Shown one piece after another: positions 49,338-50,981 of a stretch of DNA of 64,000 nt; position 1 is the first letter of the stretch; every line of letters starts with the position of its first letter. Both the position numbers and the translations under genes were made by a program. Where the stretch lies: assembly GCA_963724325.1 (NCBI GenBank), contig CAVRUH010000007.1, positions 416,001 to 480,000 of the forward strand. The letters run 5' to 3'. The notes under the pieces were generated by a model, which was given only the letters and a program-made list of their open reading frames with translations, did not search any database and had not been told where the DNA came from. Origin of the DNA: Waddliaceae bacterium. GTDB lineage: Bacteria > Chlamydiota > Chlamydiia > Chlamydiales > Waddliaceae.

Positions 49338-49414
49338 ATAACCTCCAAGTTAATTTAATAACTCTAATTATATCAAATAATTATTAAGAATATGTAAAGA
49401 AAAATTTATAAAAA

Positions 49415-50885
49415 GGAAAGGAACGGTAAAGTTTGACCCCCTAAAATTGGAGGTCATACCATGTTTCAGTCCAATGTGCTTTTCAAGGCTTATTCGCACT
49501 GTTCAGGGCTTAGAAAAAGAGCTTGGATTACGAAAGTAATCGTAATCATTCAGAAGGCAACTAATTTATTGTTGTTAGCTGAGGGAGAGGGGGCCACGGC
49601 TACTTCTTTGGGCCAACGCCCCTCCGGGGGCGGTAAAATAATCATTCGATGCCTGAAAATAATTCACCGTGCCCCTTCGGTCGAGGGGGCCACGGCTACT
49701 TCTTTGGGTAATCTCATACTAACCAATAAATATATAAAAATAAATAGAAATAAAGCCCCAAATGGGTTATCTCATTGTAGTAACCAAACCATCAAGGAGG
49801 TGTAAACCATGGGGCATAGTTCATATTTAACATATTGTATAGGAAAAGGTAAAGCATATCCTTTCGGATTTAAGTTAGATGCGGTGTTCGCAGCTGAGGA
49901 ACTTGGCAAAAAACCAGCGGCTAAAAAGTTTAAAATAGCTTTAAATACATTGAAATCTTGGATTAAAGAATTCCAAAAACATGGCAAGCAAGGCCTAATC
50001 GATAAGAGAAAGGGACCCAATTTTATTCCACATAAAATTCCTCCTGACGAGGAAGAAAGGATAGTTAGCATTCGCACGATGGCACCTTGTTTTGGCCCTA
50101 ATAGAATAAAGTTCTACTTCAATGTAAATTGTTCTGTTGGAGCTATTCGTCGGGTTATTCGATCTCATAATCTTACTAAGAAACAAAAGAAAAAGCAGGA
50201 GAAAAAAAGAGACTTAAGAGCTGTTAAGGCTAAGCGTGCATCGATGACGTATCTGCAGATGGATGTAAAATACTTAACGGACATTCCTAACTATTGGGAA
50301 CAGATAAAACCTATGGGATTACCCAGGTTCCAATATACCGTCCGTGATTCTAAGTCAGGAATGCTATTCTTGGGGTATTCTGATGAGCTATCGGAATTAA
50401 ATGCACGTACGATGATTGATCATATAATAAGCGAAATGAAGCTCGATTTACCCTTTGATATCGAGAAACTTAATGTGCAAACGGATAATGGATCTGAATT
50501 TAGCGGTCAAGCAAGGAGAGTAGAAACAGCTCCCTTTGTTCAAATGATTGAAAAGACCCATGGGGCTAATCATAATTACATAAGACCTGGTCATTGTAAT
50601 GCAAATGCGGATGTTGAATCATCACATCAAACGATTGAAGTTGAATTTTTTGACTTAATAAAGGTTAAGAATCGAGATGACTTCTTCAAAAAGATCGAGT
50701 CGTATCGGTTATATTTTAATTTCACGAGGGTGAATTTTTCTAAAGGTAAAAAAACACCGCAACAAATTTGCGCAAGTGATTGGAATATAGATGTTTCTTA
50801 TAATTTTTCCTTGATAAAAACTGTGGATTTAGATAAAATAAGTACATTCTCGTATCAACGGGGTCAATCTTTACCTGATTTTACC
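49415..50885 (+). mobile_element. IS481-like (integrase-core DDE) insertion sequence
   Basis: 26-bp imperfect IRs ending GGTAAAG(T/A)TTGACCCC; 15-bp direct repeat GAAAAATTTATAAAA at 49399-49413 and 50886-50900. Confidence 0.85.
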
Positions 50886-50981
50886 GAAAAATTTATAAAA
50901 CTGTTTTCATTTCTTAAATATTCCTTTGAGGATGTCTTTGGCCTGTGCTTCAATGCCCTTTTTGCTGGAATCTGTTTCTGA
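49809..50981 (+). CDS. HTH + integrase-core (rve) transposase
   Basis: N-terminal HTH; QMDVKY, QTDNGSEF and NADVESSH give the D-D-E triad; AGGAGG RBS; reads past the IS end. Confidence 0.9.
   Translation: MGHSSYLTYCIGKGKAYPFGFKLDAVFAAEELGKKPAAKKFKIALNTLKSWIKEFQKHGKQGLIDKRKGPNFIPHKIPPDEEERIVSIRTMAPCFGPNRIKFYFNVNCSVGAIRRVIRSHNLTKKQKKKQEKKRDLRAVKAKRASMTYLQMDVKYLTDIPNYWEQIKPMGLPRFQYTVRDSKSGMLFLGYSDELSELNARTMIDHIISEMKLDLPFDIEKLNVQTDNGSEFSGQARRVETAPFVQMIEKTHGANHNYIRPGHCNANADVESSHQTIEVEFFDLIKVKNRDDFFKKIESYRLYFNFTRVNFSKGKKTPQQICASDWNIDVSYNFSLIKTVDLDKISTFSYQRGQSLPDFTEKFIKLFSFLKYSFEDVFGLCFNALFAGICF

Follow-up and report, generated by a model that had tools for sequence, protein, structure and literature searches.

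An open leader frame, a predicted start-codon stem and a folded cassette found beside several insertion sequence families in an IS481-like element of a Waddliaceae bacterium

The window analyzed here comprises 64,000 nucleotides of a Waddliaceae bacterium (Chlamydiota; assembly GCA_963724325.1, contig CAVRUH010000007.1, positions 416,001 to 480,000) and carries on its forward strand an IS481-like insertion sequence (IS), termed ISA, in which a stretch of about 370 nt separates the left end from the transposase gene. ISA extends over 1473 bp (49414..50886), its ends being defined by flank alignment of the six copies found in the window's genome (G000). These copies display 100% identity over the whole element, including the 368-nt leader, and the homology among them stops exactly at 49414 (AGGAAAGGAACGG...) and 50886 (...TGATTTTACCG). 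The ends are imperfect 27-nt inverted repeats (left, 49414..49440; right, 50860-50886) with a 16-nt core that is 94% complementary. All six copies (6/6) possess their own, unrelated target duplication of 14-15 bp, which in the window is AAAAATTTATAAAA, present at 49400..49413 and again at 50887-50900. The six targets—AAAAATTTATAAAA, AAACACCAATAAAA, TTAAATTAATTTTA, AATTAGAAGAGAAG, a TAAATGGTCCATC-type site, and ACCTCGAACAGGAGA—share no motif that could be seen, and four of the six are AT-rich. Duplications of 14-15 bp lie at the long end of the range for IS481-type elements.

The transposase open reading frame (ORF; 49809..50981, + strand) contributes 359 codons within the element, meets no stop there and continues into the flank. 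A C-terminal tail of 2 to ~134 residues is encoded by the DNA flanking each ISA copy, and the open frames of the six copies amount to 361-493 amino acids. The protein harbors the Pfam domains HTH_32, HTH_28, and rve_3. ISA thus combines a single-ORF DDE transposase with N-terminal helix-turn-helix and rve core, inverted repeats and target duplications, as is typical of the IS481 family, and falls short of the family with respect to one measure: the best NCBIfam model, IS481, scores 143.7 bits, below its curated cut-off of 224, followed by IS3 with 58.8 bits. Relatives of ISA score 129-148 bits on the IS481 model. Judged by its sequence, ISA is a member of a divergent IS481-like clade.

The leader contains an ORF of 114 codons (49461..49805, + strand) with a Shine-Dalgarno sequence, GGAGG, 7 nt upstream of its ATG at 49461. 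Its stop codon, TAA (49803-49805), falls between the Shine-Dalgarno sequence of the transposase (49794-49802) and the transposase ATG at 49809, 3 nt before the latter. This frame, its ribosome-binding site (RBS) and its end at the transposase RBS had been described correctly in a sequence-only reading of the stretch, which had missed that leader and transposase ORFs lie in one frame with TAA ACC between them. A frame of this kind is open in only 18 of 20000 dinucleotide shuffles, and the two remaining frames hold 9 and 10 stops. Transposase relatives were detected at E <= 1e-40 in 11 of 401 genomes of the order sample; L073, with a 71% identical transposase and the sole relative retrieved by a single-protein scan of genome contigs, resides on a 1.6-kb contig of a metagenome-assembled genome labelled Margulisiibacteriota, and the relatives L130 and L125 derive from metagenome contigs. 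In the listed relatives, a frame starting MFQS (VYKS once) right after the left repeat covers the whole leader. It is open in 5/5 elements bearing the GC-rich cassette described below (ISA, L130, L073, G044, L125) and in two G245 elements (G245a, G245b) devoid of this GC-rich core. These leader ORFs end in various ways. The ORFs of G245a and G245b, 61 and 64 codons long, stop like that of ISA between the transposase Shine-Dalgarno sequence and ATG, a place occupied by two in-frame TAGs in L130 (110 codons). In L073 (114 codons), the stop is located 8 nt past the transposase ATG in a different frame; in G044 (78 codons), the ORF runs without a stop and in frame into the transposase; and in L125 it is fused to the transposase and truncated by the contig.

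The manner in which the leader changes between relatives indicates what is being conserved. Internal indels among the aligned leaders measure 3, 12, 15, and 96 nt, all multiples of three, the sole frame-shifting indel being one of 1-3 nt just before the ATG in L073. The leader omega is 0.63-0.97 (Nei-Gojobori counting), and the differences between ISA and L130 are spread evenly over the codon positions (15/23/20); for the transposases of the same pair, omega is 0.046 and the differences are distributed 40/24/145. The leader DNA of ISA and L130 is nonetheless 78-86% identical in the 5′ part, the cassette, and the 3′ part, whereas third positions of the transposase differ at 145 of 334. Since the codon pattern and omega of the leader are flat and high while its DNA identity is high as well, the open frame and the nucleotide sequence appear to be selected rather than a protein; in other words, it is the translation of the leader and not the peptide that appears to be under selection. 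The proposal of an upstream peptide put forward in the sequence-only reading is thereby divided: a frame unlikely to arise by chance is indeed kept open in relatives, and constraint at the protein level is absent.

Two predicted structures are situated at the ends of the leader. In the RBS hairpin (49435..49455, + strand), the inner end of the left repeat, GACCCCC (49435-49441), pairs with the leader Shine-Dalgarno segment GGAGGTC (49449-49455). This hairpin is part of the minimum-free-energy fold, and its arms in G245a, AACCTCC/GGAGGTT, exhibit a compensatory change and a repaired mismatch. In the anti-start stem (49755..49815, + strand), GCCCCAAATGG (49755-49765), located within the leader ORF, pairs with CCATGGGGC (49807-49815), which contains the transposase ATG. 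For 13 distinct IS481-like elements, the 15-nt start window was scored against the upstream 108 nt, with 300 dinucleotide shuffles each. The duplex was found in 13/13 elements, 20-47 nt upstream of the start (11/13 at 38-47), with z from -0.8 to -5.6 and 12/13 at z <= -1.8. Its arms vary between elements and match within each, as exemplified by AUGGGGC/GCCCCAU, AUGGAGCG/CGCUCCAU, and AUGGAGUC..., and further by AUGAAGUC/GACUUCAU, AUGGGGCUCA/UGAGCCC-CAU, AUGUGGCUCC/GGAGCC, and UUGGGACU/AGUCCC. In ISA itself, the second codon is GGG and not GAG, and the upstream arm correspondingly features C and not U. The leader as a whole folds with z = -3.35 on the + strand, where 0/100 shuffles fold as well, and with z = -2.14 on the - strand.

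A second IS481-like element occurs in G000 outside the window (L034-L038; C7:374612-375649 and four other places) in five full copies and a broken one. Its transposase is 46% identical to that of ISA and begins ~765 nt from the left repeat; this stretch harbors on the opposite strand an ORF of 151-195 codons with its own GGAGG and no Pfam match. The anti-start stem of this element comprises 11 bp and is perfect.

These features suggest, with moderate confidence, that the 370-nt stretch serves as the leader of the transposase mRNA, probably holding transposase synthesis at a low level and making it depend on the translation of the leader ORF. In transcripts that enter the element from outside, the left repeat would fold onto the leader RBS and thereby hide it. 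On transcripts that are translated, ribosomes traversing the leader would unfold the anti-start stem and finish at the start site of the transposase, and the transposase would be made only via translational coupling to the leader ORF. Consistent with coupling, the leader ORF has its own RBS and ends within a few bases of the downstream start in ISA, G245a, and G245b, and in all 13 elements the transposase start lies in a predicted structure with co-varying arms that upstream translation would open.

Several observations weigh against this model. No convincing leader promoter was found; the sole sigma-70-like site in the left end, TTGACC-18-TACCAT (9/12), would place the transcription start downstream of the leader ATG. 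The coupling layout is not uniform, given the stop of L073, 8 nt beyond the ATG and out of frame, and the fusions in G044 and L125. An IS481-like element of G253 has the anti-start stem with a left-end ORF of only 22 codons. Finally, the transposase possesses a strong Shine-Dalgarno sequence itself, making independent initiation possible.

Restraint of this kind has precedents. Fold-back inhibition is known from IS10 and IS50. In IS200, two stem-loops in the 5′ untranslated region are reported to block the effects of impinging transcription and hide the transposase start (PMC3196728). The common theme is the use of left-end structure against read-in together with a hidden start, a role proposed in ISA for the RBS hairpin and the anti-start stem. 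In contrast to IS200, IS10, and IS50, a long leader ORF lies between both structures of ISA and ends on the transposase start, and the sequence occluded in ISA is the start codon with the first two or three codons rather than the Shine-Dalgarno sequence. By analogy, the leader is inferred to be a variant of known IS self-restraint.

It is quite unlikely that the leader instead encodes a functional small protein, for example a regulator of the OrfA kind, or that read-through or fusion turns it into an N-terminal extension of the transposase. The frame is open in all relatives examined, the leader lies in the frame of the transposase in ISA, L130, and G245b, and stop-less fusions occur in G044 and L125. 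A precedent is provided by orf121 of IS91, an upstream ORF whose stop overlaps the tnpA start and which is reported to be a conserved protein acting on transposition (PMC13181058). ISA resembles IS91 in having within the element an upstream ORF that terminates at the start of the transposase on a single transcript, and differs in that its leader ORF lacks constraint at the protein level and varies in length with the cassette. A protein is at odds not only with the omega values and the flat codon-position pattern given above; the leader peptide also has no Pfam or NCBIfam match, its length shifts by 32 codons with the number of cassette units, and the G245 leader peptides match that of ISA in the first 5-7 residues only. 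Nor do the stop codons favour read-through, as UAA-A in ISA and the pair of in-frame TAGs in L130 both provide a poor context for it.

The leader ORF reads through a GC-rich cassette of two units (49562..49708, 147 nt, + strand), versions of which recur in 52 distinct elements. In ISA, TAATTTAT..GTTAGCTGAG is followed by repeat 1 (49587-49612), a variable part, TAATTCACCGTGCCCCTTC (49660-49678), and repeat 2 (49683-49708). The general order from 5′ to 3′ is TAATTTTATYGNNGTTAGCTGAG, the repeat, a variable part of 25-45 nt, TAATTTCACCGTGTCCCTTC, and the repeat again, each repeat of ~30-36 nt consisting of a loop, a purine-rich run, an invariant CACGGCTACT, and a pyrimidine-rich tail. The sequence-only reading had perceived the core as a structured, repeated and unusual non-coding module, and this description holds: the 26-mer GAGGGGGCCACGGCTACTTCTTTGGG is repeated exactly at 49587-49612 and 49683-49708 with a spacing of 96 nt, TAATCATTC recurs at 49543 and 49639 with the same spacing, and the hairpins it listed are present in the sequence. 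One of these, the GNRA-loop hairpin GGATTAC-GAAA-GTAATC at ~49525-49541, is missing in the closest relatives L130, L073, and G044, and is therefore not counted as conserved.

Conservation within the cassette has to be read with regard to the way it was collected. Columns of the second unit were fixed by the search pattern given below, so that their invariance is not evidence; conservation of the first unit and the purine-rich arm were not fixed, and several segments of 10-20 nt outside the pattern are nearly invariant across the 52 elements. The variable part of ISA contains a small hairpin, CGCCCC-TCCG-GGGGCG (49617..49632, + strand), for which compensatory variants exist in the same cassette subtype, namely CGCCGC/GCGGCG (L141, L162), AGCCCC/GGGGCT (L170), and TGCCC/GGGCA (L073). 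A second hairpin, termed hairpin 2 (49667..49695, + strand), is composed of CCGTGCCCCTTC, the loop GGTC, and GAGGGGG-C-CACGG. Between its pyrimidine arm and the purine-rich run of the second repeat, 307 of the 364 cells of the 52-element alignment are paired (282 Watson-Crick and 25 G.U pairs, as opposed to 57 mismatches including 40 C.A), corresponding to 5.9/7 pairs in the inner stem, while random 7-mers drawn from these elements reach 2.5/7. Folding predicts hairpin 2 for almost every element, with energies of -12 to -24 kcal/mol. Flank identity of the two repeats amounts to 0.81 within an element and to 0.53 between elements. Rfam 15, searched at E <= 10, returned no relevant family; the best match of the leader, astro_FSE, reached 17.4 bits against a gathering threshold of 70 (E 0.21).

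GTAGCCGT is found both in the reverse complement of the invariant box and in helix 45 of the 16S rRNA of G000 (C1:583527, 589913), and in some cassette types the match extends to AACAAAGTAGCCGT. A likeness of the reverse-complemented repeat to the 3′ end of 16S rRNA was considered and set aside as weak. Among 8 cassettes, from 0 to 131 of 300 shuffles score as well, and the resemblance beats shuffles in some cassette types and fails to reach significance in the cassette of the window.

When the leader DNA was searched against 401 genomes of the phylum sample, the box region was matched beside genes that are not IS481-like. The first-unit pattern TTAGCTGAN{4,30}CRCGGCTACT occurs in 8 of these 401 genomes, with 6 hits in G000, 14 in G253, 9 in G256, and one in each of five further genomes; the reversed control pattern matched once. 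For the second unit, the pattern CACCGTGYCCCTTCN{8,20}CACGGCTACT matched 51 metagenome loci, one of which (L138) has no first unit and was excluded as a chance match in GC-rich sequence. Neighbours were typed by NCBIfam using 71 ORFs flanking metagenome loci and 12 at genome loci. A transposase-family ORF is located within 500 nt in 50/50 metagenome loci kept, and the cassette adjoins eight transposase families: IS21, IS3, IS481, ISNCY, IS30, ISL3, IS110, and ISAs1. Most frequent is IS21 (21 metagenome loci, all sense), where 16 cassettes sit between istA and istB or just before istB and 5 after istB; a genome copy is found in G369. Next to IS3 genes (10 loci; genome copy in G253), 4 cassettes are sense and lie at or over the end of orfB, and 6 are antisense, 36-112 nt past the stop. 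IS481 or IS481-like genes account for 7 loci, 2 with a sense cassette in the leader and 5 with an antisense cassette 27-66 nt past the stop, in addition to the genome copies ISA, L073, and G044. The cassette is antisense at 3 ISNCY loci and sense in the ISNCY genome copies of G172 and G272; it is sense at 2 IS30 and at 2 ISL3 loci, two families with no genome copies. For IS110 (4 loci; genome copy in G256), 1 cassette is sense and 3 have the gene 400-485 nt off on the other strand, and the single ISAs1 locus is antisense (genome copy in G367).

In the three multi-copy elements, ISA of G000, an IS3-like element of G253, and IS110 of G256, the cassette lies inside the element, and it is internal in IS21 as well, where it sits between the two genes. 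An inverted-repeat search around antisense cassettes beside IS481 and ISNCY genes, meant to place them inside elements, found none. All first-unit hits in G000 (6/6) are in ISA copies and 0 are solo copies; one extra CACGGCTACT of this genome was discarded because it belongs to the end of an unrelated gene. In G253, with its 14 pattern hits, 9/9 aligned cassette copies reside in the IS3-like element. A blastn search of the cassette against plasmids gave no match, the cassette pattern has 0 hits in viral contigs, and full-text literature searches returned no description of the cassette or of the ISA leader.

A maximum-likelihood tree of the 52 cassettes contains a 99/98 clade in which IS481-like leaders are intermingled with IS3 and ISNCY cassettes and one IS110-adjacent copy, and a 97/99 clade that mixes IS21, IS3, ISNCY, IS110, and IS481 neighbours; the tree requires 18 label changes, the minimum being 10. 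Because its clades mix family contexts, the cassette seems to have moved repeatedly between IS families. The number of units changes as well, the G044 leader being a one-unit form of the ISA-type leader.

Some variants were noted in passing. Five IS21-type elements (L132, L134, L144, L145, L169) carry an extra small hairpin (CCCCATACTAAGAATAAGGGG and variants) ~10-40 nt after the cassette, with a stem that appears to change in a compensatory way. In L134 (2205-3077) and L151, both of IS21-type context, an ORF resembling a tyrosine recombinase (XerD model, E 3e-10) follows the cassette and replaces istB. In L101 (G256 C1:~1754154), foreign sequence, probably another inserted element, begins inside the second repeat of the cassette of one IS110 copy. 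In G253 (L092-L119), the 80-nt difference between one- and two-unit copies of the IS3-like element alters the C-terminus of OrfB, which reads into the cassette.

From its placement and conservation, the cassette is predicted to be a cis-acting nucleic-acid structure modulating expression rather than a guide: its positions are gene ends, intercistronic gaps or a leader, and it is conserved at the nucleotide level, which fits a cis-acting role in message expression or stability. Tentatively, it may be regarded as a structured non-coding accessory that moves among eight IS families in environmental chlamydia-like bacteria, kept for a need that these elements share in their hosts, for example control or protection of the transposase message, or else living as a parasite of ISs only. 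Several results count against a contribution of the cassette to the control of the transposase. RNAalifold, applied to the 52 cassettes, yields only an invariant 5-bp stem without covariation, in columns that the pattern had fixed. C.A mismatches (40) exceed G.U pairs (25) in the inner stem of hairpin 2, so that the + strand is not favoured. A consensus scan of 49414-49808 detected no terminator-like site. In 15 of 50 loci, the cassette and the neighbouring transposase gene lie on opposite strands (within 150 nt, 31 cassettes are sense and 15 antisense). Lastly, 6 of the 9 aligned IS3-like copies of G253 are one-unit and 3 of 9 two-unit forms, which differ by exactly 80 nt and are otherwise identical; since most copies have a single unit, the second unit is dispensable for spread.

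A realistic, if somewhat unlikely, explanation sees in the cassette a selfish mini-element, or a hitch-hiker shuffled by recombination, that lives in ISs and is useless to the IS that hosts it. The control of the leader would then reside in the RBS hairpin, the ORF and the anti-start stem alone, and the cassette would be tolerated in non-essential stretches. This explanation would account for the repeated crossing of IS families in the cassette tree, with four contexts in the 99/98 clade, for the unit number that varies in otherwise identical G253 copies, for cassettes in either orientation relative to the transposase, for a position always at gene ends or between genes, where upstream ORFs enter and stop at differing places, and for close IS481-like relatives (G245) that have no cassette. 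It is opposed by the near-invariant segments of 10-20 nt outside the search pattern, which point to function, and by the cassette edges, at which neither terminal inverted repeats nor a consistent target duplication were found. No copy lies outside an IS in G000, and no clean empty site could be reconstructed, as the cassette-less G245 leaders are too diverged to align. Y1 (IS200/IS605-type) transposase genes are present in 4/5 cassette genomes and absent from G253, the genome that holds 14 cassette copies.

REP/BIME sequences, miniature inverted-repeat transposable elements (MITEs), and Rickettsia palindromic elements are short hairpin repeats at gene ends, between cistrons, and in frame within ORFs. 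The cassette resembles them in position and in a unit number that varies through recombination. In contrast to REP/BIME sequences and MITEs, it is found only in or beside ISs, the host genes of the three multi-copy genomes contain no dispersed copies of it, and its units are direct rather than inverted; the absence of edge repeats and, in G000, of solo copies likewise sets it apart from MITE and REP sequences.

A role of the cassette as a conditional transcription attenuator or insulator is doubtful. According to this scheme, the pyrimidine arm CACCGTGYCCCTTC has both identical repeats as possible partners: with the downstream one it would form a GC-rich hairpin plus U-rich tail that stops RNA polymerase, with the upstream one it would permit passage, and ribosomes ending on or crossing the first unit would choose which pairing forms. 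In leader-peptide attenuators of the trp type, one arm pairs with either of two like segments, and the cassette is comparable in having an arm with two possible partners and an ORF that ends in or crosses the first segment; many upstream ORFs have their stop within or close to the first unit. Repeats that are near-identical within an element and different between elements are what two alternative partners need, hairpin 2 is followed by CUACUUUGUUUUGG-type tails, and insulation from read-in or read-out transcription would be plausible at every position seen. The cassette differs from trp-type attenuators in lacking a canonical terminator and regulatory codons and in occurring in mobile elements in both orientations. 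The U-rich run starts 4 nt beyond the stem, unlike that of an intrinsic terminator, and no site was called in the leader of the window. The identity of the repeats covers tail and loop, more than arm pairing needs, and in the istA-istB context (16 loci) termination would cut istB off.

Very unlikely is the idea that the cassette acts as single-stranded DNA, for instance as a priming or single-strand initiation signal aiding replicative copy-out transposition. IS3, IS21, IS30, IS110, and ISL3 form circles by copy-out-paste-in, which makes most of the host families circle formers; moreover, hairpins tolerate both orientations relative to the gene, and the C.A and G.U counts do not single out the transcribed strand. 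Opposed to it are the lack of a consistent orientation relative to the nearest IS end, the lack of similarity to any known signal that could be compared, and the dispensable second unit in G253.

Hardly tenable, finally, is the proposal of the sequence-only reading that the leader constitutes a guide- or bridge-like RNA tied to an integrase-core enzyme, the variable loops of which would specify the target or the element ends. Its appeal lies in a two-unit architecture that combines a constant box with a variable part in each unit, in a 9-nt segment, CGGTAAAAT (49631-49639), that is indeed the reverse complement of the right IS end (50878-50886), and in the G256 cassette, which follows a gene of the IS110 family, a family that is reported to use bridge RNAs (PMC11208160). 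Since six identical leaders are associated with six unrelated targets of 14-15 bp, a fixed guide cannot specify the targets of ISA, and the cassette is common to eight transposase families, one subtype of it occurring in IS481-like, IS3, and ISNCY contexts. The CGGTAAAAT match, one of 14 inverted pairs of at least 9 nt in 1.5 kb, is read as close to chance; the segment belongs to the cassette subtype and recurs as GGCGGTAAAC, GGCGGTATAA, and GGCTGTATAA beside IS3, IS110, and ISNCY transposases. The two repeats are identical within the element and not complementary to its ends or flanks, and they match nothing else in ISA or in G000. The cassette does share with the bridge RNAs of IS110/IS1111 and the omega RNAs of IscB/TnpB the arrangement of a structured non-coding two-part module beside a mobility gene. 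It differs from them in that the enzyme of ISA is an rve DDE transposase and neither a DEDD (RuvC-like) recombinase nor a RuvC nuclease, in the unrelated targets, in its occurrence in unrelated families, and in the lack of an Rfam match.

Within the biology of ISs, the ISA leader offers a comparative case of self-restraint, in which a left-end hairpin, a translated leader of non-coding-like character, and a start-codon stem co-varying in 13 elements would act together. To our knowledge, ISs of different families have been thought to share nothing but their hosts. Here, at least eight IS families carry or abut one folded module, with evidence of repeated exchange between families and of gain or loss of units among otherwise identical copies. 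If functional, the cassette would indicate that ISs, to be expressed or to survive in these intracellular bacteria, have to satisfy a host-specific requirement; if selfish, it would be a parasite of parasites. Under either reading, it could be used as a marker for IS-borne regions in chlamydia-like metagenomes.

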